From contig CM000436.1 in NCBI GenBank assembly GCA_000165345.1, positions 608,001 to 672,000 of the forward strand: 64,000 bases of DNA, read 5' to 3'. Position 1 is the first letter of the stretch, and each line of letters begins with the position of its first letter. The notes beneath the pieces are model-generated. The model saw only the letters and a list, made by a program, of their open reading frames with translations, was not told the DNA's origin and searched no databases. Positions 2,167-29,308 of the stretch are shown piece by piece. The position numbers and the translations under genes were made by a program.

Positions 2167-2958
2167 ATGGTTGAAGTTGAAGAATTTGGAATTAAGTGTA
2201 GCAATATGGAATGTAACCTAATTCAGTTTTTACCATTTGAGTGTTTCAAATGTAGAAAAAAATTCTGTATAGAACATGTAAATTCTGGAAAGCATATGTG
2301 CGAAAGTAAAGGCAATGATTTAGAACTAGATAATGGTTTTAAGGGAGGATTTGAGGAAAGAGAAAAAGCTTCGGTAAATTGCTCAATGAACGGTTGTTCA
2401 AATGTAGGGATAATATGTAGAAAGTGCAATAAAATGTTATGCTCGGAGCACATTTATGAATCTGAGCACGAATGTATGGGAAAGAATAGAGTTATAATTA
2501 GTAAAACCGCACTTGATTTGAAAAGAAGGTATTCAGGAGGAGAAATGTTAAGAGGATCAAAGCTTCCTGATGAAAATAAATCAAGTAAAATGTTGAGGAA
2601 AATAATGATAAAATCAAAAAGTATTGGAGATTCAAGTATTCCAGCTAGGAATAGAATTGCAGTAGCTTTATATGTAAGTAGTGGTGTGGAATGCTTAAAA
2701 TTTGTAAATAAGGACTTACCAATATGTATTTGGTTAAATGGGGAGAAGACAGTTGGATGGAACTTGGACTACATTTCAGAGAAATTAAGAGTATTACATG
2801 GGAATAATAAGGCAAAGTTTTTAGGATTGGTTTTATTTAAAAATAAGGATATTCAAGGGAATGAAATTCCAGAAAAGAAGATTCTAGAGATGAGCGTAGA
2901 ATTGAGAAAATGCGTTTCAGATGGGGAGTCTTTGCTACTTGATTATGGGCTTGCTTAA
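2167..2958 (+). CDS. Protein with two AN1-type zinc fingers (ZFAND1/Cuz1-like)
   Basis: Two copies of C-x4-C-x9-12-C-x2-C-x4-C-x2-H-x5-H-x-C (CSNMEC...CFKC...CIEH...HMC and CSMNGC...CRKC...CSEH...HEC) followed by a ~150-aa C-terminal domain. Confidence 0.65.
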   Translation: MVEVEEFGIKCSNMECNLIQFLPFECFKCRKKFCIEHVNSGKHMCESKGNDLELDNGFKGGFEEREKASVNCSMNGCSNVGIICRKCNKMLCSEHIYESEHECMGKNRVIISKTALDLKRRYSGGEMLRGSKLPDENKSSKMLRKIMIKSKSIGDSSIPARNRIAVALYVSSGVECLKFVNKDLPICIWLNGEKTVGWNLDYISEKLRVLHGNNKAKFLGLVLFKNKDIQGNEIPEKKILEMSVELRKCVSDGESLLLDYGLA

Positions 2959-3201
2959 TTGTGGGTAATTAACACAATATTTGTATTTGAATCATATTAT
3001 CTAACCAACAAATTTCTATTCCAATAAAAATTGAGCTATCACTTCTTCTAAATATAACTCAACTTTTGAATGATAATTCAAAGTAAAGTTTATCCAAGTT
3101 CAAAATTTGAGATTATATTATTTTTATTGCTCCCCCCTCATTCACAAACTCATTTGCCCCTTTTACAAGAAATTAACATGCAAATAATGAAAGTAAAGAC
3201 A

Positions 3202-3217
3202 TGGCGCTATGGCGCCA
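3202..3217. promoter_or_regulatory. Tandem TGGCGCTA-TGGCGCCA E2F-like doublet ~100 bp upstream of the SNF2 ATPase gene
   Basis: Seen directly in the sequence. Confidence 0.5.
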
Positions 3218-3319
3218 CTAATGAAGGAGGAGAACCCGCCAGGGCAATAGATTAGGAAAACAAAAAGTGTAATAGTAAGGGGAAGAAAAAAAAAAAATCC
3301 TCTGGATGAATCGGAAAAG

Positions 3320-6300
3320 TTGATGAGTGAAGGAAGTAATAGGATTATGAATAATGAAATTTATGGAATAGGTTCACAGAATCCTCCATTGGGTGGTGGT
3401 CATTTGATTCAATCGGGGGTAAGTGGAGGGATGATTGCAAGTCAAAAGGAGGGTACCGTTAATAGTGGGGCGATGATAGGAGGAGGAGGAAGTGATAGCA
3501 CTAGAGGAGCAGGTGGAGTGGGAGTAGGAATGGGAGCGAACGGGGCTGGGTATATGCCAAAACCATCTATGGATGTCATAAAGGATGCAACCAGTGGAAA
3601 ACAGAGTTGTTTAAGTGGAAATACGACATTTACTCATGCATGGTATCCAGAAATTTCTAAAATATTATATGATGTAAGTAAATCCAATTTATCTATTCAA
3701 GATAAAAGAGTACGAATTTTGTTATTAATTTTCCAATGGATAAAGAAGCAACAATGTGAGTTAGTAGACCCAAGTGTATTGTTTTCAGATAATAATATTG
3801 AGATTCTTGAAAATCAATTAAAAGCTTATAAGCATTTTTTAACAAGTGATGTACCTTTAAGTGAAAATATATTGGAGAAGAGTCTTGGCGTTAATATAGC
3901 TACTGGAAATAAGAGACAAAGGCTTGAAGGCCAAGAAGGAGGATCATCTATACAGAATACTCAACAAAATTCTTTTAAAGAAGAAAATAATATGGGAAAT
4001 AATACTAGTAACGTTGAAATAGAAGGATTTCAACCAGACTGGAACTTTATTAATTCTGTTATTAGAGATACTAATTCATTTAACTATAAAGTTCCAATAT
4101 CAAGACAAGGTTCTTCTATTATTGCTAGAAATCCAAATCAATGGATTGATTATAATAGAAAAGTTGAACAGAATAGAATGGCTCTTTTAATGAATAGGAA
4201 TATTGGTATGAATGGTAATATTAACACTCAAGGTTCAAATCCTGTAACTTCATCTAGCTCAGGAGGGGAAAATGCTAAAAAAGAAACGGAATCTTTGGCA
4301 AATAATTCCAAAATGGTCATTGATGATCATCCAACTAAGTCAGAGACAATAAGAAGTGAAGGTAAAACTGATTCCAGAGCCGAATCTAGAATGGAAGATA
4401 AAAATGTTGATAAAAACCTTGCGAATCAAAATCAAGATCAAGATGAGAGTATTCATAATAATGCAAATGAACATGATCAAACAGGAGTCAATAAGCCATC
4501 ATCATGTACAGATTCGAAACCTGAGGAACAAGATGAAGATTTGCTCTTAATACATAGAATTTCAAAGCTACTTAATTTCCAACATTTTATTAGAAATCAA
4601 ATAATAGTCTCCAGATATATTGAAGAAATGGATCCACCTCTCCCACAATTAAAATTTGTGACAGCAAGGGATGCTAGAAAGAATAAAGCTCTTTACCAAG
4701 CCAGAATTGATGGTTTAAAACATATCAAGGTCGTGGATGACATTAAAAGGCAAAGAAGGCAATTTATTTCAGAAATTTTAAAACATTCAAAAAGATTTCA
4801 AGATGTCCATCGTGAAAACCAGAGAAGTATTCGAAGAGTATGCTCTCATGTATTGAGACATTCCACTAATAAAGAAAGAAGGGATCAAAATTTGGAACAA
4901 CAAATGCAAAGAGCAAGATTGAATGCTTTAAAAGCTCAGGATGAAGAAGCATATTTAAGACTTTTGCATGAAGCTAAGAATGAAAGACTTTTGGAATTAG
5001 TTCATCAAACTGAAGATTATATGAATAAACTTGGGGCTTTAGTTATGGAACATAGAAAACAAGCAGGTTCAGCTGTAGACTTTGATGAACTTTACTTGGA
5101 AGAGAATCAGAAAGAGGGTGAAGAAGAAGAAGAGGATGAGGAGGTTGAAACTGGAGAGAATAATCAAAATCAAGAAGGGAAAGATCTTGGATATAAAGGA
5201 GATAAACATATATGTAATAAATGTGGCTGCTCAGGGAAACCACCTGATGAGAATCATCGAGAGGCTACCAAATTAGGATCTGCACAAGGAGATTCAGAAA
5301 AAACAATTGAGTCTAATGAAATTAAAATAATTGAAGATCAAAAAAATGGAGTTTCTTGTAGTTGTAACTCTCCAAATTGTACGTGCTCTTTATCTATTTC
5401 TACTTGTGATTGCAAATCTGAAACATGTTGTTCAAAGAACAAAAAGAAGAAACGATCTGCGCCTTTAATAAGAGCAAAAGAGAGATATTTCCAAGTTACC
5501 CATATGATACAAGAACATATAACAAAACAACCTGAATGTTTGAAAGGAGGTCAATTAAGAGAATATCAAATGAAAGGATTGGAGTGGTTAGTTTCTTTAT
5601 ATAACAATAATTTAAATGGAATTTTGGCTGATGCTATGGGATTGGGAAAGACTGTTCAAACTGTAAGTGTATTAGCACATATTTATGAGAATAAGGGAAA
5701 TAGAGGGCCTCATTTAATTATTGCTCCTTTATCTACTTTACATGGTAATTGGGAAAATGAATTTAACAGATGGTTACCAGATTTTGTCAAAGTTATTTAT
5801 GAAGGAAATAAAGAAATTAGAAAACAAATACGCTCTAAATATATGACAGGAGAGGCAAAGTTCCATGTTTTATTGACAACTGATGCATTCATAATGAAAG
5901 ATAAGCACTATTTACGAAAGTTTGATTGGGAATACATTATAGTAGATGAAGCTCATCGTTTAAAAAATCCAAAGAGTAAACTTGTACAAATCTTAAATAA
6001 TGGTTTTAGAGCAAAACATAGGCTTGCTTTAACCGGTACCCCACTTCAAAATGATTTACAAGAAGTTTGGGCATTATTAAATTACTTAATGCCAAGTATT
6101 TTCAACTCTTCTGAAACTTTTCAACAATGGTTTAATGAGCCTTTATCTTCTATAAAATCTTCAGGAAAAACAGGAGGAGGTTCGGATAATGGAATTGTTC
6201 CATTAGATATTAGTGAAGAGGAACAACTTTTAATTGTTGATAGATTGCATAAAGTTTTGAGACCTTTTCTATTAAGAAGAGAAAAAATCCAAGTTGCTAA

Positions 6301-8344
6301 TGAAGTACCTCCTAAATTAGAAGAAATACTTTGGTGTCCTTTAAGTGGTTTACAACAATATCTATATAAAGAACTTGAAAGTAATGAGAATTCTGGACCA
6401 AATGTATTAATGCAATTAAGAAAAGTATGTAATCATCCATTTTTATTTTCAACTGAGATACAATATCCATCAGATGAGAGTATTGTCAGAGTTTGTGGTA
6501 AATTTGTTATGTTAGATAGTATCTTACCAAAGTTAAGAGCAGCAGGACATAGAGTATTGATATTTAGTCAAATGACTAAATTATTAACACTTTTAGAGGT
6601 ATTTTTATCATTAAGAAATATGCCATTTTTAAGATTGGATGGAACAACTTTATCTGAAGATAGACAAGAAAGTCTCAAATTATTTAATGCTGAAAATAGT
6701 CCATACTTTGTTTTTCTATTGTCCACAAAAGCTGGTGGATTTGGTATTAATCTTCAATCGGCAGACACAGTAATATTATTTGATTCAGATTGGAATCCTC
6801 AGAATGATGAACAAGCACAAAGTAGAGCACATAGAATTGGCCAAAAGAAAGAGGTTTTGACTTTACGTTTTGTAACACCTGATACAGTGGAGGAGAGAAT
6901 TATGACAACAGCAGGAATAAAATTGGATAAGGATGCCTTAATTATAAAATCTGGAATGTATCATGATCTTTATGATGGTGATGATTTGGAACAAAAGAGA
7001 AAAGAAAAGATTCAAGAAATTTTGAGGAAACAAAGACAAAAAGAAGTAGTTAACTGCTATTATGACTCTGATCGTTTAAATAGAATTTTAGCAAGGTCAG
7101 ATCGTGATTTGGAAATCTTTGAGAGGGTTGATAGAATGAGAAAGATGTGTCATATTCCAGGACTTATTATGGATCCTACTTTACCTCCTTGTTTATTTGA
7201 ATGGAAGAAACAAGCTAAGATATCTAGAGTAACTATAGAAAATCCTCAAAAAGCTGAGGAGCTTTGGAAGCTTTGTTATACATTTGGCGATCCTTGGGTT
7301 GTACATCCAAAAAATAAGAGTTGGAGAAGAATACAAATTTTGGGGAATTCTGGTCAGAATAGTAATGAAATTGATAAAAAAGGTGTTGTCAGTAATTCTG
7401 AGGGAATATATAATGCTGGAAGAAGTACAAGATCTTCTATTAATACTATAAGTAATAGAAGATCATTGAATACAGAAGAATCCAATGAAGATGTTGAAAT
7501 GAAGGATGAGGAGTTAGAAGAAATGGATTCTATTGTAAGTTTAGGAGAAAGATCAGATTTAGAATTTGCAAGAAATAGGAAATCAATGTTTGAAGTTACT
7601 AGTAATATGAAAGCAATTAATGTTTCTAAAGATACAACAGGTGATGGCTCTCAAATAGGGAAAGAACTTGAAATTGGTACTATAAGTTCAACATTGGGTA
7701 CCGGGAATGAATTGGAAGATTTAAATGAAGAACAAATCACTCCAGAGGAAATAGAATATAGAAGGGAATCATTAAATGATGCTATTTTACAAGCTTGTGA
7801 CATGGCTATGAAGATTCCAGAATATGAGGCTTATATATCCCTTCCATCACAGACTATTTTCCCAGACTATTACCAGATTATTTCAAAACCTGTTTGCTTG
7901 CAACATATTCGACAGTTTGCAAAAAAGAGAGAATTCACCTCCTTACACAAATTGGAAAAGTATTTAGAACGACTTGCATCAAATGCTAAGACTTATAATG
8001 GAGTTAGCCATTTTCTATATTATTCAGCTCTTCATTTAACAAATACTATTATGATGGAGGTTAGAAAGAGAGTTGCTGTTGCATTCTATACATATAAACT
8101 TCCTGAAGGTCATATTAGGGATCACGAAGCTAAGCAACTTTTGGATGGTCTAAATTCCGTCTCAGAAACAGATTTGAATAGAAAACATATGTTGGTTCCA
8201 GATGTTGGCGACGAAGAGGAAGAAGAAGAGGAGGAAGAAAATGATGATGAGGAAGAAGAGGAAGATGAGGAAGAAAACGATGATGATGATGATGACGATA
8301 ATAATAAGAATAATCGAGTTGAAAAGAAAACTGGGAAAAAATAA
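3320..8344 (+). CDS. SNF2-family chromatin-remodelling ATPase with C-terminal bromodomain (Snf2/Brahma/Sth1-like)
   Basis: LREYQMKGLEWLVSLYNNNLNGILADAMGLGKTVQT (SNF2_N), DEAHRLKN, the helicase-C motifs (LLSTKAGGFGINLQSADTVILFDSDWNPQNDEQAQSRAHRIGQ), and a bromodomain (PDYYQIISKPVCLQHI...YN). The C-terminus is a poly-acidic tail. Confidence 0.9.
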   Translation: MMSEGSNRIMNNEIYGIGSQNPPLGGGHLIQSGVSGGMIASQKEGTVNSGAMIGGGGSDSTRGAGGVGVGMGANGAGYMPKPSMDVIKDATSGKQSCLSGNTTFTHAWYPEISKILYDVSKSNLSIQDKRVRILLLIFQWIKKQQCELVDPSVLFSDNNIEILENQLKAYKHFLTSDVPLSENILEKSLGVNIATGNKRQRLEGQEGGSSIQNTQQNSFKEENNMGNNTSNVEIEGFQPDWNFINSVIRDTNSFNYKVPISRQGSSIIARNPNQWIDYNRKVEQNRMALLMNRNIGMNGNINTQGSNPVTSSSSGGENAKKETESLANNSKMVIDDHPTKSETIRSEGKTDSRAESRMEDKNVDKNLANQNQDQDESIHNNANEHDQTGVNKPSSCTDSKPEEQDEDLLLIHRISKLLNFQHFIRNQIIVSRYIEEMDPPLPQLKFVTARDARKNKALYQARIDGLKHIKVVDDIKRQRRQFISEILKHSKRFQDVHRENQRSIRRVCSHVLRHSTNKERRDQNLEQQMQRARLNALKAQDEEAYLRLLHEAKNERLLELVHQTEDYMNKLGALVMEHRKQAGSAVDFDELYLEENQKEGEEEEEDEEVETGENNQNQEGKDLGYKGDKHICNKCGCSGKPPDENHREATKLGSAQGDSEKTIESNEIKIIEDQKNGVSCSCNSPNCTCSLSISTCDCKSETCCSKNKKKKRSAPLIRAKERYFQVTHMIQEHITKQPECLKGGQLREYQMKGLEWLVSLYNNNLNGILADAMGLGKTVQTVSVLAHIYENKGNRGPHLIIAPLSTLHGNWENEFNRWLPDFVKVIYEGNKEIRKQIRSKYMTGEAKFHVLLTTDAFIMKDKHYLRKFDWEYIIVDEAHRLKNPKSKLVQILNNGFRAKHRLALTGTPLQNDLQEVWALLNYLMPSIFNSSETFQQWFNEPLSSIKSSGKTGGGSDNGIVPLDISEEEQLLIVDRLHKVLRPFLLRREKIQVANEVPPKLEEILWCPLSGLQQYLYKELESNENSGPNVLMQLRKVCNHPFLFSTEIQYPSDESIVRVCGKFVMLDSILPKLRAAGHRVLIFSQMTKLLTLLEVFLSLRNMPFLRLDGTTLSEDRQESLKLFNAENSPYFVFLLSTKAGGFGINLQSADTVILFDSDWNPQNDEQAQSRAHRIGQKKEVLTLRFVTPDTVEERIMTTAGIKLDKDALIIKSGMYHDLYDGDDLEQKRKEKIQEILRKQRQKEVVNCYYDSDRLNRILARSDRDLEIFERVDRMRKMCHIPGLIMDPTLPPCLFEWKKQAKISRVTIENPQKAEELWKLCYTFGDPWVVHPKNKSWRRIQILGNSGQNSNEIDKKGVVSNSEGIYNAGRSTRSSINTISNRRSLNTEESNEDVEMKDEELEEMDSIVSLGERSDLEFARNRKSMFEVTSNMKAINVSKDTTGDGSQIGKELEIGTISSTLGTGNELEDLNEEQITPEEIEYRRESLNDAILQACDMAMKIPEYEAYISLPSQTIFPDYYQIISKPVCLQHIRQFAKKREFTSLHKLEKYLERLASNAKTYNGVSHFLYYSALHLTNTIMMEVRKRVAVAFYTYKLPEGHIRDHEAKQLLDGLNSVSETDLNRKHMLVPDVGDEEEEEEEEENDDEEEEEDEEENDDDDDDDNNKNNRVEKKTGKK

Positions 8345-18745: not shown

Positions 18746-19984
18746 TTTAACAAGTTTTATAGGTTTCTCTTAAAATCGTTTAAATCCAAAGAATTTACGT
18801 TGTCTAATGGGGTCTAAGAGAAGCTACACTAGTGTAAAATGTGAAATATACTTTACCGCGCAAAGTCTTTTATTAATAATAAAATAAAAAGTGAATATAT
18901 TATATAATCAACTTGAATATATAATATTTAAATATATATATACATATATGTTTATTTATTTATATATATTGAATGGGCAATCCACTTTTCTAAATTTGTT
19001 AACTTTTAATCAACTTGACAAATCGTATTCATAATTACTAATAAAACTAATTGATATATTAACTAATCTTAATATTTATACTAATCAACTTTGCCTTATA
19101 CATCAAATACAGATATATATAATATATTGGAGACGCGTGAGACACGACATTTAGTACCGGCGTACATAGGCGGGTAATTCAGCGCGAAGGGTGGGGAATT
19201 GTCTCAGAACCAATCAATTCTTTATAAGGCAGAGGGTATAAAGCCAAGTTGCAATTTTAAAAGATATACGAAAGAGCTGAATTTAAAAAGAAGTAATGCG
19301 GGTAATAGACATTTCGGGAGCAAAAATTGCTATAAGTGGATCCTAGAGGAGATATATTTGGCGGGAAGCCCACAGGTAAATACCAATGTGTGGGTACTTC
19401 AGCGCCTGGGAGGTTTATTAGTTAGAATGAAAAAAATTGAGGTTGAGTAGACCTAACGGCATTTATGATTTCACTTCTCCTATTGGTAGGTATTCAGATT
19501 CGTATTGCCGGACATGTAATGTAAAAATTAATATTGAGTGCCTGAATCCATGTGGCGCCAAAATTGTATTTTGTGTTGTATGGGCGAGTAATGCAGTAGT
19601 AAGATAATGTTGGTAATAGTAATTTCAGTATAGTAGCGGTAATATTATTGTTAGCAGTAGTAGTATTTATAATAGCAAAGCAGAAGTTGGCTTTAGAGAT
19701 GAGTAACTGCTCTCTATGTCTTTAGGAATTTTACTTGAAGAATTAGACTAAATTTTTAGCATAAAAGACAATGATTTGGCGCGCTGCTAAAAATTTACAT
19801 GATTAAAAATGTCAGACGAAAATGAATTCAGAATAATGAATATACACAAGTGCATATTCATATAGTCAGGATCAGTATATTCTTTAGATAAATTTACATC
19901 GAAGAAATGAGGGGGTTTTGTGTTGTTGGTCAATTAATTAGGTTCAATAAAAAATTGAGCTAATAGTTAATTCTGGATCTCTTT

Positions 19985-21109
19985 CTATATTGAGTTAATT
20001 TTTGATCCTGTTTTGAGCGTATTTTCTGATAAACAAAATCTTTCCAGTAACTAGAAACAGATTGTGAAAAATCAACATGTATTCTGAAATAATGAGTTAA
20101 TTTAGTTGATGGAAAAATATAAGTTACGATGAATTATCACAAAAATAAGATAAAGTTCAGGGAGAAGAAGAAAAGGGAAAGATCGTAGTTAGAAGTCAAC
20201 TTACCTTCTATCGTCAATTACAGCGTTCTGCATTTTCAAAAATGCCATTTCACACTGTTGTTTAGTTTCAAACTCAATGAATGCATATTGAAGAGAGTCT
20301 CCAGTCTTGTAGTCTCTAATAATGTTACAAGATTTTACTTCGCCAAATCTCGAGAATATAAGCTCTAAGTCATCGTCTTGAGTAACTGGATTGAGCTTAC
20401 AAACAAAAAGGACATTTTCTGGAGGTTTCATATCAGCATCAGGAATATCTCCAAGAATCTCTAAGGTTATAGCTCTAGATTTAGCTTCTCTTTCACTAAT
20501 AGAATTTAGAGCTTTAACTTCATCCTGATCATACGTTTGAACCAATGGATCAGTTTCTTCTGGAGGTGAATTAGGTGGAATGATTTCTAGAAGCTGTGGA
20601 GAGTCTTCAAAAGGATCATCCAATATATACGTATGTAGAATCATAACTTTTTGTAAAGGTATAGAATTTTCATCTGTAATAACTTGGTTGAGTTTAGACA
20701 AAATAGGAATCCCTTCCTCAACTTGAGCAAAAATTACATGATTACCATCCAAATGACTTAATTCATCTTTCAGTGTAAAATAAAACTCTGAACCCAAAGA
20801 ATTCTTGGAAATATGATTGACCATTCCTAGAACCCCCATTCTTTTATGCTTAAGTTTTGGTGTAGTTTCAAGTTCCAAAGATATATTATCCTTTTTCTGA
20901 TTACTTAATAACTGATAAAGTGAGGAATTCCCATATTGCTTAGATCTGCCAGTTCTGGCAATGAAATCTTTCTCTATCTTATAAAATTCACAATTATTAT
21001 AGAATTTAAGCTTACAGAGCTTTAGAAAGTTTTCACACGTCTTTGGACAAAGATCCACATTTAAATCAATCACCAAGTCCCCTAAAGTAGTTTCAATTAA
21101 CACAGACAT
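19985..21109 (-). CDS. PPIL4: Cyclophilin-type PPIase plus RRM protein (PPIL4-like), two exons join(20205..21109,19985..20084) on the minus strand
   Basis: It has a PPIase-like domain, then RRM motifs (LFVCKLNP, QYAFIEFE). The apparent stop in ...VIDDRR-TAA is AG|GTAAGT. Splicing to the acceptor ...TTATTTCAG at 20085-86 gives ...DDRR-IHVDFSQSVSSYWKG, the conserved RRM-terminal IHVDFSQSV motif of PPIL4. Confidence 0.8.
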
Positions 21110-21620
21110 GTAAGAATCAAGTTCTTCTTATTGAACTAATCCAAAAATCAATAATCTAAATCTTCATGTTATCAAGTTAATCTCAAATGTATTCCTTTGA
21201 ACTTTAACCTCTAATTTGATTAGACACTTTTTATTAATTATTATGGTTGCTTCTTTATATCTTTAGGCGGGTAATTCCTCACTAAGTGTTACCGGTATGC
21301 ATTTTTTTTATTTCTTAAAAGACTATATTTACCGTCATTTTTTTCATGTGGACAACAAAAAATTAAAAATTGTTAAAAAATATTACATGCTCGTATTTTA
21401 GTAGTAAAAGGAAAGGGAAAGAGAAAACTACAAAATAGGAGAATTTGTAACAGACAATAAACTTCGTAGAATATTACTAATTTATGAGAAAATAATAAAG
21501 TTCAATATTGAATCAAGAAGGGTAGAACAAAAATATTTAAGAATTATTGAGAACTCTTTTCTTTATTTCCTTTGGATTTGCTACTTTAACTGGCTTGAAT
21601 TAATCTGACCATTTCAAAAT

Positions 21621-22748
21621 ATGAGCAAAAAGAATGATGCTCGACCTTGCTCTAAAAGGTTTTTAAAATTTCCAAAAATGGGCAGTTCACTAAAAATATA
21701 CACACAAGGTATGAAAATAATAGTCGATAGTTTTTACTGTTAAGCCAAAAGCCCTCTAGTATTAAATTCTTTTAATATTTATATTGGAATGCAGTAAGAA
21801 CCATAGAAAACGGATAAGCTACTTTTGTCTCAGTAATCTTCATGTATGATTTTGTTTTGATCATCAAAGATCAAGAGATGATCTGCTAAAGAGAGACTTT
21901 GATGGCATAAGTTAGCTTTAATTAACGCTAAAATTTGAATTCCACTAACTATAATACCCCTTTTACAAATTGTATTTTTTTTTTTTTTTTAGAAGAATCT
22001 GAACCTGAAAAATTTCAAGTAAGAAAAAATAGTGCACTTGATAACTTACTTGAGTTATCGTTTCCACCAGTGAGGTCTTTTGATGGAGAAAAAAGGTAAA
22101 GTTAAAAATAATAGCATTTTGCTTGATTTGATTTAGTTTAATTCAAACGATTCTTAATATATATTATACATCAACTATTAATACACTTTTTAGATCATAT
22201 GAATTTCGATACCCAAATAGCAAAAGGTCACTATTCCCATTTGAACTAACACCTAGAACGCTCTGTTGTATAGATAATATTAAAATGGGAGTGAAAACGG
22301 TAAGTATGATAGCCTCAATTTTTCTGGTATCAATCTTATTATTACCTAATTTAATATATCTATTTCTCCCATATTTTCATAGGGAGCTATAATTGGATCT
22401 ATCTTTGGCGGAATCAATGGTGCATACCATGCACTAAAATACAGGAATTATATGGCAATTCCAGTCTTTGCTGTAAGTCAAAAACTAATTCAGAGTCAAA
22501 TTTCGTTAATAATCTTATCCCTTTATTAGATTGGTGGAGCCATTAGTTTTGGATTCTTTCTTGGGTGTGGGATGATAGTTAGATGCCAACCCTCAGAATT
22601 TACCAATTATAAATTTCATAATAAATGTAGTCAGGTCATTTTTCCAATATACTTTAATAAGATTGAAAGAGTTTCCCGCCAAGACTTCAAAATACATGAT
22701 AATTTGAACAATTTCTACAAATTCCAAAATGATAAAATATCAAAATAA
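21621..22748 (+). CDS. ROMO1/Mgr2-family (Tim17 superfamily) small membrane protein, multi-exon join(21621..21708,21993..22095,22194..22299,22383..22472,22530..22748)
   Basis: The spliced product ...CCIDNIKMGVKTGAIIGSIFGGINGAYHALKYRNYMAIPVFAIGGAISFGFFLGCGMIVRC aligns with ROMO1 (SCFDRVKMG...GGTFGTFMAIGMGIRC). Donors are GTATGA, GTAAAG, GTAAGT and GTAAGT; acceptors are T-rich tracts ending in AG. All exons are phase-consistent. Exons 3-5 are confident; exons 1-2 (the N-terminal extension) are less certain. Confidence 0.5.
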
Positions 22749-23114
22749 CCAATCAAGTACAAAACAAATTATTAATTTTCAATTTTATTGATATTTAAAA
22801 ACCTATTAATTTTATCATTAATACTATGTATCTACGCGTTATGATTTCTGTATAAATTTTCCACAAGACCTATATCAACTATTTTAAGCCATGCAATTTT
22901 CCCTATACCGGCATTTACTTGCATACATGCGCAAAAGGCGGCAACTCTCTGCATGTATATACTTTAAGTGGGAATCATTAAGATATTTTGATTCTTTTTT
23001 TTCTTAAATTTTTAAAAGGGAAAAAGAGGCAAAAAAATTAACAAATCTAGTCGATATATCCACTATTTACTTGGATAAATAATAACTTTCAATCTATAGA
23101 TTTTTAATATTGAT

Positions 23115-24287
23115 TTGGAAGAAATGAGGGGAAAGAAAATATTTGGAATGTGCAACCCGATCTTGGATATAGTGTTAAAGGCATCTCCTGATAGAATAAA
23201 GGATTTAGGGCTTAAGATAGGGTCAACGACTCTTGGAAATGATGAGGAAGTTTTCAAGCTAATTGGTGATATAATTTCAAACAATGAAGATGCTAATTTT
23301 GTAGCAGGAGGATCTCTTTTAAATGCATTTCGAGTCTGTAAGGAGCTGTCAAATAAGGACGAAAAAAATAAAGATGATTCAATTTCAGTATTTTTTTCAG
23401 GAGGAATTAGCGATGACTCTGGGGGAATTTTACTTCAGGAATTGCTCACGGAAATTGGAATTGAATTTGAATTCCATATTACTAACAAGGCGAATCTGGA
23501 AACAGCAAAATGCGTAGTTTTTGTAACTGAAGAAGAGAGAACGCTTCTCGCAGGATTAGGAGCTGCTAAGGAATATTCGATTACCACTTTTGAGTCAGAA
23601 AATATTCAACATGCTTTAAAGACCGCAAATATATTCGCAACAAGTGGATTCTTTGTTGAAGTTTGTTTCCAGGCAATTCTTAAATCTGCTCAATATATTC
23701 ATCAATTTAGATCTAACGAATGTTCATTTGTATTTGGACTTTCAGCTACTTATATTCCAGAAAAGTATATGAATGAGTTATTCCAACTTCTACCAATGAT
23801 TGATTATATCATTGGAAACCAAGAAGAATTTGTCTCTTTATATAAAAGTATCAACAATATCCTTCAAATTGAAGACGATGACCAACTATTACTTTCGCAG
23901 GATAATATAAATCAACCAGAAAACGATGCTTTAGAAAGAATTCTCACAGAAATTCATAAGCATCTTAAACCCACATGTATTATACTATGCACAAGAGCCC
24001 ATTTACCCGTTATTTCATTCAACCCTAAAGATCCTAATAGTTGTATAAAATATCATGAATGTATTCACGTCCCTAAAGAAAGGCTCATTGATGTTAATGG
24101 CTGTGGGGATGCATTTAAGGGTGGGCTTATTTACGGTATTTCAAACTCTTATCCTTTAGATGCAAGCATATATATGGGGCATTATGCTGCCTCTAATGTT
24201 GCTCAAAATGTTGGCTGTGATTTTGATTTCTCAAATAAACCAACTCTTAGTGAAATTATACAACTAACTTCATCTAAAAATAATTAA
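23115..24287 (+). CDS. Adenosine kinase (pfkB carbohydrate kinase family)
   Basis: N-terminal GMCNPILDI (matches ADK GMGNPLLD), a GG dipeptide, and the C-terminal pfkB signature DVNGCGDAFKGGLIYG. Confidence 0.8.
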   Translation: MEEMRGKKIFGMCNPILDIVLKASPDRIKDLGLKIGSTTLGNDEEVFKLIGDIISNNEDANFVAGGSLLNAFRVCKELSNKDEKNKDDSISVFFSGGISDDSGGILLQELLTEIGIEFEFHITNKANLETAKCVVFVTEEERTLLAGLGAAKEYSITTFESENIQHALKTANIFATSGFFVEVCFQAILKSAQYIHQFRSNECSFVFGLSATYIPEKYMNELFQLLPMIDYIIGNQEEFVSLYKSINNILQIEDDDQLLLSQDNINQPENDALERILTEIHKHLKPTCIILCTRAHLPVISFNPKDPNSCIKYHECIHVPKERLIDVNGCGDAFKGGLIYGISNSYPLDASIYMGHYAASNVAQNVGCDFDFSNKPTLSEIIQLTSSKNN

Positions 24288-24422
24288 TTTCCGCAAATAT
24301 CTAATTTTAGGTTTAATACATTCCCAATATTATTAATAATACTAATTTTGCCATTATTTATTTTTTTCACCACGTAATACAATTTTTATACCTGCATGTA
24401 ATTTTTACTATTCATTTCCATC

Positions 24423-24433
24423 TTGGCGCCAAT
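24423..24433. promoter_or_regulatory. E2F-like TTGGCGCCAAT ~300 bp upstream of CDC45
   Basis: Palindromic GGCGCC core. CDC45 is a canonical E2F target in other eukaryotes. Confidence 0.55.
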
Positions 24434-24733
24434 CCTACACATTTATTATTAAATAAAATAAAAAAAATTTGTGTTAAATAAATAATATGCGAGTAGGGTT
24501 GTTTAATTTTTTTTTCTTTCGTACCAAGAAATAATTTCAAAATAGATTGAATTCAATTAAGAGAAGAATAACAATTAATTACATGGGTTTTTGATTTATG
24601 TGTGTTCATGAGCTTGCAAGGCTTTGTGGCGAATTTATCAAAGGTCTTTTTTTTTTATTGAAAATTACCCCTAGTTATAAGCATAAGTAATTAAAAAGAT
24701 AATTGAATAAGATAATACTTAGATTTTGAGAGG

Positions 24734-26854
24734 ATGCCGGCTATTCCAGCAGTGGATTTTGTTTCACAATATTACCTCCCATTTGTTGAAAAGATCCAAA
24801 TCAGTAATAGAGAGGATTCTAATAAAGTCTTTCCAAAAGTTTGGATATTCTCTTCAAATGATGTGGATTCTCTTTGTACTAGCACTATACTTATTAATCA
24901 ATTCTTTAAGCATGATGAGATACAGTGTATGCTAAATTGTGTTACCCACTATAACGAGATTTCTAAGATTCTACAAGAATACAAAAATTACTCAAAACAA
25001 AGAGAGCTTGTGAATATATGTATATTGATCAATTTAGGAGCCATGGTAAATATTCTACACTCACTTAGGCTTTGGCTTGGAGAAGATTTGGAAATTTGGA
25101 TTTTCGATTTTCATAGGCCTGCCATTGATGAGTTAATGCTTACAATTGGAGGAAATTATAACAATAACAATGTATTGATCCTTTCTATTCAAGAATACAA
25201 TTTCTTGGTAAATAGTAAATCTGGTAGAAAGAAATCACGTAAGAATAGCTCAAATCCAAGTGATGGACAAACTAACGAATCTAGTTCAACATTTTCTTCA
25301 AATAATCCTTTTGCTTCATTATCTCAGACTATTGATGATTTGGATATACTAATGGGTACTTCAAATGGAGAATCCCAAAGCTATAATGAGCAAATTGAGG
25401 ATGAGACAGATGAACTTTTTGGAGAGTATTGTGGGGATCCAAGTAGTCTTGTGATTGTCCAAACATTAGATAATTCAATAACTTCAGAAAGAATAGATGG
25501 AAATGTATTATGGTACTCTTCAATCGGAATTAGCTGGTGTTATATTAATAGGTATATTGAACTACTAGATTATGAAATGTATTTTGACTTACTCAATGGA
25601 ATCCTTTCAAAATACACAGGTGATATGAGCAATATAAATTCAAAAAAAACTAGTAATAAAAAATATTGGCCAAAGTACATAAAGAATGACCTTTCAATCC
25701 CGCTTTATCGTCATTGGAATCTAATGGATTCAGTATATCATAGTGAATATCTATATTCAACAATGGGTTTATGGAAGACAGAAAATAGCAGGGATACAAT
25801 AATGAATAGAAGAGTGGCCTCTGGGATTTCATTGAAAGATTTTACAACCAAATTTTATCTTCTTGAAAAAGAAGTATCGAAAAAAGTTGTTCAGGACTTT
25901 CCAAAAGGATTTTCAGGGTTTGAGAGTGGATCAGAAACTGCATCACAGTCTCTACAAATCCCAGTATTTCTGAAGTATTTACCATCTATAGTATTAGACT
26001 CAGAGTTACATCCACACTTATCATCTCTTGATATGGCCCAAATCCTTCATACTCTGTTGACAAACGACTGTAGACTAGCAGATAGCGGAGAAAGCTTCAT
26101 GGATGCAATAGTTTCGTCAGGAGCTCTAAATAGAATGGAACTAAAACATAATACAATGTCAGAAAGATTACTGAATGAGGAGAAAAATAACGAAAATGAT
26201 AGTTCTAAACTTAACCAAATTCTTGGTAAAGACCAAAAAATACAGCTTCTATTCAGGGATTGTTTTAGGGTAGGGCTACAACTCCTAGATCTATCGGGAG
26301 CTGATTTTAACCAAATTAATGTATTTCAAGACCATTCCTGGAAACAGCTAAAATGCTACATTGAAGAAGCAAAGCTTCTGCTTTCACTAAAATTAAAATA
26401 TGTAAAAATGCTGCTATCGTCATCTATAAATGGAGGAACTTTGATAAAACACAACTATTTCACTCTTGCTGAGCTTAATGATATAGAAATTTCACACCCT
26501 TTAAATCTAAGAATTGTTGGTTACTCTATTATCGACATAATATCAAGAAATCGTGATCTCCAAGATAAGCTTGTGATAATCTCAAAAAATAGTACCAACA
26601 AGGTTGCCACAATAGTTGGAATTACTCCGGGCTACGATAGCAATTCTCCAAATTTATTTGGAGCAATTTTCTCTAAAGTAATAGACATTATTCTAGAGGA
26701 AGGCCAAGGCCTTCTAGGAGAGGAGCACTTCTTTGTTCAAGATGAGTTTGATTTTTCTATTCTAAGAATTCATGCAAATTTCCTTGAACAATTTACTTCA
26801 AATCTTTTCAAATATATTGAAAGCAGCAAACATATATTGACTAATTCAATATAA
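24734..26854 (+). CDS. CDC45: CDC45 replication initiation factor
   Basis: A 706-aa DHH-like N-terminus (SNDVDSLCTSTILINQFFKHDEIQ) with Cdc45-type architecture, an acidic/Ser-rich insert and a conserved C-terminal domain. An E2F-like TTGGCGCCAAT lies 300 bp upstream. Confidence 0.8.
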   Translation: MPAIPAVDFVSQYYLPFVEKIQISNREDSNKVFPKVWIFSSNDVDSLCTSTILINQFFKHDEIQCMLNCVTHYNEISKILQEYKNYSKQRELVNICILINLGAMVNILHSLRLWLGEDLEIWIFDFHRPAIDELMLTIGGNYNNNNVLILSIQEYNFLVNSKSGRKKSRKNSSNPSDGQTNESSSTFSSNNPFASLSQTIDDLDILMGTSNGESQSYNEQIEDETDELFGEYCGDPSSLVIVQTLDNSITSERIDGNVLWYSSIGISWCYINRYIELLDYEMYFDLLNGILSKYTGDMSNINSKKTSNKKYWPKYIKNDLSIPLYRHWNLMDSVYHSEYLYSTMGLWKTENSRDTIMNRRVASGISLKDFTTKFYLLEKEVSKKVVQDFPKGFSGFESGSETASQSLQIPVFLKYLPSIVLDSELHPHLSSLDMAQILHTLLTNDCRLADSGESFMDAIVSSGALNRMELKHNTMSERLLNEEKNNENDSSKLNQILGKDQKIQLLFRDCFRVGLQLLDLSGADFNQINVFQDHSWKQLKCYIEEAKLLLSLKLKYVKMLLSSSINGGTLIKHNYFTLAELNDIEISHPLNLRIVGYSIIDIISRNRDLQDKLVIISKNSTNKVATIVGITPGYDSNSPNLFGAIFSKVIDIILEEGQGLLGEEHFFVQDEFDFSILRIHANFLEQFTSNLFKYIESSKHILTNSI

Positions 26855-27457
26855 TAGAGTAGATATTCATCTTAGGATCTTTTACTAGTATTAATCTTTA
26901 AATATTATAAGAAAGTATATATTATGTTTAAAATATAATGATAAAAATAAATATTATCATTTTTTTTGTCCACATTAAATTTTGTTACCGTTGTTTACTG
27001 CCATTTGCATGCATGCATTCAAATTACAATTTAATTACGTCATTTTAAAATTTAATTCCCGCCTAGTTTGTGGAGCAAATCATGCATCTTGTAATTTGTT
27101 AAATAAATGAAAGTTAGAAAATAAAATCAAAGGCATAAAAGGCGAAATAAGGAAGATTTATTGGTTTAGTTTTTAAAGATTTGATAATAAGAAGAGTTGT
27201 TGGTTGTTTGACTGATAACGAGAGCTATTTAAATTTTCCAATTAATTATTAGGTAAAGATTGTGAATTAGACAGCAATTAGCAATTTGACAGTATTACTT
27301 GGGATCTTCTTCCGAAATCAAGAAATTAACATTTATAAGGAGTACATCTTAAGACTGAAGGTAAAGATTTTGAAAACTATTTAGAAAAAAAGTAAATCAT
27401 AAATAATTTCAAGAAATTTAGTATGTAAGTTAATTTAAAAAAAAAATAGTTATTGAA

Positions 27458-29308
27458 ATGGAAAAGGAGCAATCTAAAGGTAAATTAAATCAAAACTCAA
27501 AGAATGAAAATAGTATTGTTCAGAATGAAACCGATAAATGTGAACTTTGCGGTGAAAATACAAATATTTCGAATTTCAGAGAGTATATTGGAAACCCCTT
27601 AGCATTTATTTATTTATTTTATAACAAGCTAAGTGGAGGAAACATTGAAACATACTTTACAAAAAATCTTAAAGAAATAGTTTTAGATGTTGATGGTATA
27701 GTTACACATATGAATTTTGTGGATATGATCTCAGATTTTGAGTCAGGAATAAATCAGGTCAAGAATTCATTAAAAATTACAAATAAAGATATTTGCATTA
27801 TTGGAATTGGGGGGGATGGGAGTTTTAGTACACTGGTGAATAAATTCTTGGAAAGCATTCCAGAAAACAAAAATCGCCTTATTTTTGCTGTTTTACCTTT
27901 TGGAACTGGGAATGACTGGGCAAAAAGTTTTGGATGGAGTAGCTATGGGAATATGAAGTTTATGAAGGATGATTTCTCTCCTTTAATAGATCTTGCGAGA
28001 GGAATTTTTACCTCAAATTTAATCAACTTTGATACTTGGATGATTGAGGTTGAAATTTTTGATAGTGAGGATTCCAGCTTTCAAAGAGTTAATCCAATTT
28101 CTCAAGAGCTTGAGAGGGTTAATAATAATGATGATGAAGGTAAAAAGCTACTCTTATTGAAGAGAAGATGTATTAACTACTTCAGTTTTGGAGAGGAGTC
28201 TAGGGTTGGAATCACCTTTGATACTTATAGAAAGAGGAATGTTCTTTTAAATAGAGCATTATATGGTTTAGCAGGTTCCATGTTTACTGTCAATATGAAT
28301 AATAAGCATCAAAGTAATACTCCTCTTTCTCATAGTACAAGAAAAATTTATTTAGAAGACCCCGAACATCCAAATAAGGAGACTAATAATCTAGAATGTG
28401 CTTTATGTCCAAATGGTACAGTTCATTCTTCTGAAGATTCTCAAGAAAATTCTACTTGTCCAACTTTACTTAGCAGTGTTTCACTGGTTTTCCTCAATAT
28501 TGAAACTTTTGGAGGAGGCGTCAAATTATGGAAGAACTCAAAGAATGTAGGACCATCCATTTCCAAAACATCGTCCAATCTTAATTTTGGTGAAATGGTT
28601 GGCAATCTTAGTTCTTTTTTGGTTAATCCTATTTCCTTGGATTTTGATACTTTTAAACAAATAAAAAATCCTAAATCAGGAGATGATGCCGAATCAAGCT
28701 CAAGATCTGAATCTGACTCAAATTATGATTTAGAGTCAGAGTCTGATATCAATCTTGATTCTGATAAATCTATTCTAGATCTAAAGGAGTCTGATATTAA
28801 CAGACTAAATGAAGAGCAAAACGACCAGGATATTGACTCATTAAAAGAGGATCAATTAAACAATACTGCTAAGGATAATATTTTAAATATTGTACCAGAT
28901 TCTTGTGATAAAAAGCTTGAAATTATGAGCTTTTCAGGATTAATAGATTTTAGCTCTATATTTGTACCATATATGAGTACAGCAAAAAGAGTGGGACAAT
29001 TTTCGCCTTTTCAAACTGATTCACAACCTCATTTTGAAGAGGAATTATCTTCAAAAATAAGTGAATTAGAAATCCAAAATTCAGAAAATAATTCCAAAAG
29101 TTATAAAAAATTAGGAAACACTCTAAAGATGGACTTCTTCAATAAAGACAACTCTGAATGTAACTCTGATTTTATTGAAGTTTATTTCCAAATCGATGGA
29201 GAATACTACTTGGCAAAAGAACCAAAGCAATGCTCTGTTAAATATGACCAACAAATTAAAGTTCTAAGATGTATTATTCCATATAGCCCATTCAAAAATA
29301 TCCATTAA
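27458..29308 (+). CDS. Diacylglycerol kinase-like lipid kinase (DAGK catalytic plus accessory domains)
   Basis: PLAFIYLFYNKLSGGN and ICIIGIGGDGSF are followed by VLPFGTGNDWAKSFGW (the DAGK_cat signature) and then NYFSFGEESRVGITFD (accessory domain). Confidence 0.7.
   Translation: MEKEQSKGKLNQNSKNENSIVQNETDKCELCGENTNISNFREYIGNPLAFIYLFYNKLSGGNIETYFTKNLKEIVLDVDGIVTHMNFVDMISDFESGINQVKNSLKITNKDICIIGIGGDGSFSTLVNKFLESIPENKNRLIFAVLPFGTGNDWAKSFGWSSYGNMKFMKDDFSPLIDLARGIFTSNLINFDTWMIEVEIFDSEDSSFQRVNPISQELERVNNNDDEGKKLLLLKRRCINYFSFGEESRVGITFDTYRKRNVLLNRALYGLAGSMFTVNMNNKHQSNTPLSHSTRKIYLEDPEHPNKETNNLECALCPNGTVHSSEDSQENSTCPTLLSSVSLVFLNIETFGGGVKLWKNSKNVGPSISKTSSNLNFGEMVGNLSSFLVNPISLDFDTFKQIKNPKSGDDAESSSRSESDSNYDLESESDINLDSDKSILDLKESDINRLNEEQNDQDIDSLKEDQLNNTAKDNILNIVPDSCDKKLEIMSFSGLIDFSSIFVPYMSTAKRVGQFSPFQTDSQPHFEEELSSKISELEIQNSENNSKSYKKLGNTLKMDFFNKDNSECNSDFIEVYFQIDGEYYLAKEPKQCSVKYDQQIKVLRCIIPYSPFKNIH

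Follow-up and report, generated by a model that had tools for sequence, protein, structure and literature searches.

A spliced Romo1/Mgr2 gene of Cryptosporidium parvum and its likely place in the mitosomal TIM23 translocase

Results

Locus and gene model

We analysed 64,000 nucleotides of the Cryptosporidium parvum genome (GenBank assembly GCA_000165345.1, contig CM000436.1, positions 608,001 to 672,000, forward strand). This whole stretch is called the window, and coordinates refer to it. Between a cyclophilin-RRM gene and an adenosine kinase gene, no uninterrupted open reading frame (ORF) of at least 80 amino acids was found on either strand from 21109 to 23115, so a plain ORF track leaves this gap empty. 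The gap holds a five-exon gene, and the features are as follows.

21621..21708, + strand: exon 1, 88 nt; ATG at 21621-21623; encodes MSKKNDARPCSKRFLKFPKMGSSLKIYTQ and the first base of the next codon
21709..21992, + strand: intron 1, 284 nt, phase 1; donor GTATGA; acceptor AG preceded by a T16 run
21993..22095, + strand: exon 2, 103 nt; encodes ..EESEPEKFQVRKNSALDNLLELSFPPVRSFDGEK
22096..22193, + strand: intron 2, 98 nt, phase 2; donor GTAAAG; acceptor ..ctttttag
22194..22299, + strand: exon 3, 106 nt; encodes RSYEFRYPNSKRSLFPFELTPRTLCCIDNIKMGVKT, which completes the N-terminal extension and opens the Romo1 domain (Cys89, KMG)
22300..22382, + strand: intron 3, 83 nt, phase 0; donor GTAAGT
22383..22472, + strand: exon 4, 90 nt; encodes GAIIGSIFGGINGAYHALKYRNYMAIPVFA, the first glycine-zipper helix and the loop
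22473..22529, + strand: intron 4, 57 nt, phase 0; donor GTAAGT
22530..22748, + strand: exon 5, 219 nt; the second glycine-zipper helix IGGAISFGFFLGCGMIVRC and a 53-amino-acid tail; stop codon TAA at 22746-22748
22267..22586, + strand: stretch that encodes the Romo1/Mgr2 domain (residues 89-148), split by introns 3 and 4
22632..22748, + strand: non-conserved tail, residues 164-201 (the last 38); includes a cryptic donor CAG/GT at 22635
23124-24287, + strand: adenosine kinase ORF; its exact protein was found on C. parvum chromosome records

The original prediction, made from the letters alone, was of five phase-consistent exons at these coordinates, between T-rich acceptors and GTAAGT-type donors, in a gap of the ORF track. 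All of this was borne out: the ORF scan at the 80-amino-acid cut-off agrees, the five exons join in phase, an identical protein is publicly annotated at the same coordinates, and the peptide strings given with the prediction are exact. The phases after exons 1 to 4 are 1, 2, 0 and 0, and the joined coding sequence has 606 nt, or 201 codons plus TAA. All four acceptors are T-rich tracts ending in AG, and the donors are those listed above. The gene region is AT-rich (about 30% G+C), and the introns have 19-28% G+C. An example of a peptide that spans a junction of the spliced 201-amino-acid protein is TGAIIGSIFGGINGAYHALK. The introns of the CPATCC annotation, to which one of the public models of this gene belongs, are stated to be 100% RNA-seq-supported, as a general statement that is not specific to this gene (PMC8744675).

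The acceptor of exon 2 is a tandem site, TAG/AAG (21990-21995). Use of the proximal AG gives the 201-amino-acid models, and use of the distal AG drops one glutamate and gives the 200-amino-acid model of C. hominis UdeA01 (CUV07784.1). Both forms could occur as isoforms.

Intron 1 is 3-5 times as long as each of the other three introns. Around the Romo1 gene, intron 1 included, Rfam gave only one match, to a family of bacterial sRNAs, and this was below threshold and at chance level. The possibility that the long intron 1 or its surroundings hold an RNA gene was rejected, as no credible Rfam match was found. In the 64 kb, no Rfam family reached its threshold and no tRNA was found.

The neighbouring cyclophilin-RRM gene (19960-21109, - strand) is annotated in C. 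parvum as 342 amino acids with an intron; its plain ORF has only 302 amino acids (20201-21109). A divergent intergenic region of 511 nt lies between this gene and the Romo1 gene. Two tandem repeats were seen elsewhere in the window. One (62543-62949; 30-nt period, 13.6 copies, 84% matches) lies inside a 283-amino-acid ORF at 62269-63120 (- strand), which may encode a repeat-containing protein. The other, an 18-nt repeat (GAAGACGATGATGAGGAA, 4.5 copies) at 8219-8299, encodes an acidic Asp/Glu tract in a 1674-amino-acid ORF at 3320-8344.

Public records of the gene

Positions 19124-28287 of the window are identical to the C. parvum records CP141125.1 and CP029787.1 at 9164 of 9164 positions. CP141125.1 carries an annotated 201-amino-acid gene with a PF10247 match, whose locus positions 2498-3625 correspond to 21621-22748 of the window. 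The exact protein is in GenBank as QOY39992.1 (CPATCC_004060), WRK33989.1 and KAL5366970.1, named 'Romo1/Mgr2 [Cryptosporidium parvum]'; these records represent the same gene, identical over 201 residues. Orthologues are present in C. hominis (PPS97987.1, 201 amino acids), C. tyzzeri (TRY49722.1, 201 amino acids) and C. meleagridis (163 amino acids). The gene is thus the C. parvum Romo1/Mgr2 orthologue, already annotated and named in GenBank, and is no discovery. The first C. parvum annotation probably missed it, since there is no Iowa II accession among the records of the exact protein.

Several public models of this locus differ from the one above. The Romo1 gene is absent from the gene table of CP029787.1, where the gap holds only a 63-amino-acid out-of-frame ORF (22355-22546; locus 3232-3423) across exon 4 and intron 4. 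The public C. felis model (locus 1501-2284) is mis-spliced: its last intron is read through, and it has a frameshifted end, ..LVEQSALDSSWVAE. C. canis OIY81_64 is mis-spliced as well, with introns 3 and 4 retained. The conserved second helix is missing from both.

In C. hominis OLQ19302.1 (559 amino acids), Romo1 is fused after ..KCSQ to adenosine kinase. The route of the fusion is from the cryptic donor CAG/GT at 22635 to an acceptor at 23099, just upstream of the kinase ATG. The paper on the CPATCC annotation warns that read-through RNA-seq yields false gene fusions in this compact genome (PMC8744675), and this fusion is probably an artefact of read-through transcripts. A homologue search with the C. 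parvum protein did not recover that protein itself. In protein clustering at 90%, C. parvum Romo1 falls in a chimeric cluster whose representative is adenosine kinase; the fused model most likely bridges both. A sixth exon reached through the donor at 22635 was rejected: the donor is used in the fused model only, and C. meleagridis and C. canis have stop codons near it.

Family membership

The spliced protein matched the Pfam profile Romo1 (PF10247) with 51.5 bits (E=1.3e-13), residues 89-148 aligning with profile positions 2-66 of 66. The gathering threshold of this profile is 27.6 bits, so the search that the original prediction had proposed as a check was passed. We asked how far the choice of splice sites might inflate this score. 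There are 733 GT..AG pairs within the gene, and at most about 5e5 splice combinations have to be considered because the domain needs a choice of only two introns among these pairs. After this correction the match remains at around 1e-7. The Romo1 match is therefore far above chance and robust to any reasonable splice-choice correction.

The motifs around the two helices also fit the family: C89-I-D-N-I-K-M-G96 before helix 1 and ..MIVRC148 at the end of helix 2. Human ROMO1 has a conserved Cys before KMG and a terminal ..IRC. In an alignment of 17 relatives, C89, G96, G100, G104, G108, G112, the segment GGA.SFGFFLGCGM and C148 were invariant, and R147 was kept in at least 90%. When a profile of these 17 relatives was searched against the PDB, the sole match was yeast Mgr2 (9j9b_D, E=4.9e-4). 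With the single sequence, the match to yeast Mgr2 was weak (E=0.89) and ranked under two chance enolase matches.

Yeast Mgr2 (9j9b chain D) has the same glycine-zipper hairpin, in which KMG precedes helix 1 and helix 2 closes with a motif of the G..G.IIR type, but shares only about 24% identity with the C. parvum protein. Its 113 amino acids include about 15 residues ahead of the domain and an extension at the C-terminus, whereas the C. parvum protein has an N-terminal extension of 88 amino acids. Human ROMO1 belongs to the same Pfam family (PF10247); with 79 amino acids it is essentially the bare domain, and the C. parvum protein is 2.5 times longer. The ROMO1/Mgr2-like identity given in the original prediction thus agrees with the Pfam match above threshold, with the profile and fold matches to yeast Mgr2, and with the GenBank name.

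The same prediction had placed the gene in the Tim17 superfamily. This stands in the broad sense of the literature, in which Mgr2/Romo1 is placed in the Tim17 family (PMC7762337), but not at the level of the Pfam profile: the Tim17/Tim22/Tim23 profile PF02466 gave no match to the 201-amino-acid protein at E up to 10. Glycine-zipper transmembrane helices are common to this family and the C. parvum protein. Tim17, Tim22 and Tim23 have four transmembrane helices, as their profile does, whereas the core of the C. parvum protein has two predicted helices only, which makes it a superfamily-level relative only.

Predicted fold

Hydropathy peaks were found at about residues 93-117 and 120-150. Overlapping G/A/S-xxx-G/A/S-xxx-G/A/S repeats lie at 96-113 and 129-141, and the loop between the helices has a net charge of +2. 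AlphaFold2 placed helices at 84-119 and 124-148 with pLDDT above 90, in agreement with the hydropathy peaks and with the two glycine-zipper transmembrane helices of the original prediction. Residues 84-148 are thus confidently predicted to form a two-helix glycine-zipper hairpin. Confidence was low for the N-terminal extension (pLDDT below 50) and for the 53-amino-acid tail.

When the predicted core was searched with Foldseek, Mgr2 of the substrate-engaged yeast TIM23 complex (9j9b_D) ranked second, with a probability of 0.98. The core superimposed on it with a target-normalised TM-score of 0.77 and an rmsd of 1.3 A over 62 columns. The Foldseek E-value for this match (0.97) is not significant, and all Foldseek E-values were near 1, because a hairpin of 62 residues is a simple shape. 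Tim17, Tim23 and Tim22 chains were weaker matches.

Conservation in the genus

We compared C. parvum with C. meleagridis, C. canis, C. felis, C. xiaoi and C. ryanae, threading the annotated proteins onto their own DNA. The order cyclophilin-RRM (-), Romo1 (+) and adenosine kinase (+) was the same in the six species. The position of intron 3 (after VKT or its equivalent) was shared by 5 of the 5 other species, and that of intron 4 (before IGGAIS) by C. meleagridis, C. canis, C. xiaoi and C. ryanae but not by the C. felis model. A phase-2 intron at the position of intron 2 (GEK/R) was also present in C. meleagridis, C. canis and C. felis. The exons of C. meleagridis are 88, 103, 106, 90 and 105 nt long and differ in length from those of C. 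parvum in the last only; the counterpart of exon 1 has the same length and phase.

Exons and introns diverged differently. Against C. meleagridis, the exons showed 91-96% identity and no indels (exon 2, for example, 95.1% without gaps), whereas the introns showed 84-90% identity, with indels in three of the four (intron 1, 87% with 10 gap columns). Against C. canis, identity was 72-78% in exons 2-4 and 33-66% in the introns. Substitutions relative to C. meleagridis fell on codon positions 1, 2 and 3 in numbers of 5, 6 and 15. There were 5 synonymous and 2 non-synonymous codon differences in the domain core, and 6 synonymous and 7 non-synonymous ones in the N-terminal extension. The substitution pattern is that of a coding sequence under purifying selection.

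N-terminal extension and C-terminal tail

The original prediction had an N-terminal extension of about 95 amino acids encoded by exons 1-2. An extension exists, but it has 88 amino acids before Cys89, and exons 1, 2 and most of exon 3 encode it. Its net charge is +7; the peptide encoded by exon 1 itself has a net charge of +7 over 29 amino acids. In homologues from Plasmodium, Babesia, Eimeria and Symbiodiniaceae, the domain lies at the C-terminus or close to it and is preceded by an extension of about 80-140 amino acids. The proteins of Plasmodium malariae, Babesia bovis, B. duncani, Eimeria maxima and Symbiodiniaceae are thus like the C. parvum protein in having a long N-terminal extension. 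The Cryptosporidium block SFDGEK..Y aligns with a block ESDG..Y in the extensions of these homologues; their proline-rich segment F[ST]xPP is absent in the same form from Cryptosporidium. The sequence of the second transmembrane helix, GGA.SFGFFLGCGM, is invariant from Cryptosporidium to dinoflagellates. Judged from these alignments, the basic N-terminal extension is a trait common to Apicomplexa and dinoflagellates and is not specific to Cryptosporidium.

A C-terminal tail of about 50 amino acids had also been predicted, and 53 amino acids were found after Cys148. Plasmodium and Babesia proteins end in ..RC or ..KC, whereas Cryptosporidium has this extra tail. Within the genus, loose conservation reaches only about 15 residues beyond Cys148. 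C. meleagridis has a TAA in place of codon 164, and another in-frame stop follows six codons on. The DNA from 22632 to 22748 shows an intron-like 87% identity to C. meleagridis with 2 gap columns, and the differences are distributed over the codon positions as 5, 3 and 5, with no third-position bias. This pattern suggests that residues 164-201 are probably an unconstrained extension, which a shift of the stop codon would have produced in the lineage of parvum, hominis and tyzzeri.

Discussion

The gene described here is a Romo1/Mgr2 orthologue, and we consider it likely, with good confidence, that its product would serve as a Tim17-associated lateral-gate subunit of the mitosomal TIM23 complex. 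In a broader wording, association with Tim17 as a gate or as a stabilising subunit of TIM23 is probably its role, and of the roles considered it is the most likely one. From yeast Mgr2 and human ROMO1, the hairpin would be expected to insert into the inner membrane of the mitosome and to bind Tim17. There it could close the translocation cavity of Tim17, in the TIM23 presequence translocase, on the lateral side that faces the lipid. It would thereby help to stabilise TIM23 and would control whether precursors go on to the matrix or leave laterally into the membrane. Yeast Mgr2 is likewise a lateral gatekeeper beside Tim17.

To our knowledge, C. parvum is without respiratory complexes III and IV. 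The part of Mgr2 function that concerns Tim21 and coupling to the respiratory chain in yeast is unlikely here because of this absence, and it probably does not apply in C. parvum. Truncated respiratory chains have been described for Cryptosporidium species (PMC9490983). Yeast Mgr2 is a TIM23 subunit that couples Tim21 to the core (PMC7762337; PMC5455965); through it, both Tim21 and the respiratory chain are connected with TIM23 (PMC7762337), and C. parvum does not offer this context. The partner complex itself seems to be in place: C. parvum is reported to keep Tim17, Tim23, Tim22, Tim50, Tim44, Pam16, mtHsp70 and Mge1 (PMC5747110). Because Tim17, Tim23, Tim50, Tim44 and Pam16 are kept, a further TIM23 subunit would fit. 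For the same reason, the view that such a gene is notable in an organism with a reduced organelle was overstated: the TIM23 core is reported as retained (PMC5747110), and the gene was already annotated.

A genuine Romo1-family protein might act outside TIM23, as an inner-membrane cation channel, as a modulator of reactive oxygen species, or as a factor for a few substrates. Human ROMO1 has elsewhere been proposed to act in the inner membrane, either as an oligomeric non-selective cation channel or by modulating reactive oxygen species. Family assignment alone cannot pick among the roles proposed for the family, glycine-zipper helices could also support homo-oligomers, and part of what yeast Mgr2 does was defined in the context of complexes III and IV, which is missing in C. 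parvum. Nevertheless, we regard a role outside TIM23 as unlikely. Solved structures put Mgr2 inside the TIM23 complex (9j9b), and the core of that complex is reported to be retained in C. parvum (PMC5747110); moreover, an organelle without complex III would have little obvious need for a modulator of complex III radicals.

That the gene is a decaying relic, transcribed and annotated with no functional protein being made, is very improbable. The reduction of the organelle, the variable length of the tail between sister species, and the nearly equal numbers of non-synonymous and synonymous differences in the N-terminal extension (7 versus 6) could be taken in its favour. However, in all Cryptosporidium species recovered, the annotated orthologues have an intact frame and canonical splice sites. 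The indels relative to C. meleagridis are in introns and none are in exons, the core shows third-position bias (5 synonymous versus 2 non-synonymous differences), and the second transmembrane helix is invariant as far as the dinoflagellates.

A chance assembly of unrelated glycine-rich exons, or of exons from other transcripts such as that of the downstream adenosine kinase, for which the joining of these exons to the kinase in OLQ19302.1 and the warning about false fusions from read-through RNA-seq (PMC8744675) might speak, is refuted for practical purposes: the Pfam E-value of 1e-13 survives the splice-choice correction, several independent annotations give a stand-alone 201-amino-acid protein, the fused model itself has all five exons with the same joins, and orthologues elsewhere stop at their own codon before the kinase gene.

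The gene, then, probably encodes an Mgr2-type subunit of the mitosomal TIM23, and it holds nothing biologically new for the databases, where the identical protein already carries the Romo1/Mgr2 name. The case illustrates that a sequence-only reading can recover a small intron-rich gene overlooked by ORF scans. What interest remains lies in a gap in the literature and in the lineage-conserved N-terminal extension. In the searchable literature, Cryptosporidium and Romo1/Mgr2 were found together in incidental co-mentions only, and Mgr2 is absent from the summary of C. parvum import components in PMC5747110. The gene is apparently annotated yet not discussed. Published inventories of the mitosomal import machinery may therefore miss Mgr2, and the TIM23 complex may be more complete than summarised.

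As for the N-terminal extension, we tentatively suggest, as a speculative reading, that it could be a lineage-specific TIM23 module, perhaps an intermembrane-space arm replacing the contact or receptor roles of Tim21. If this were true, the fact that a mitosome without complexes III and IV retains the extension would suggest a role in import that is independent of the respiratory chain.
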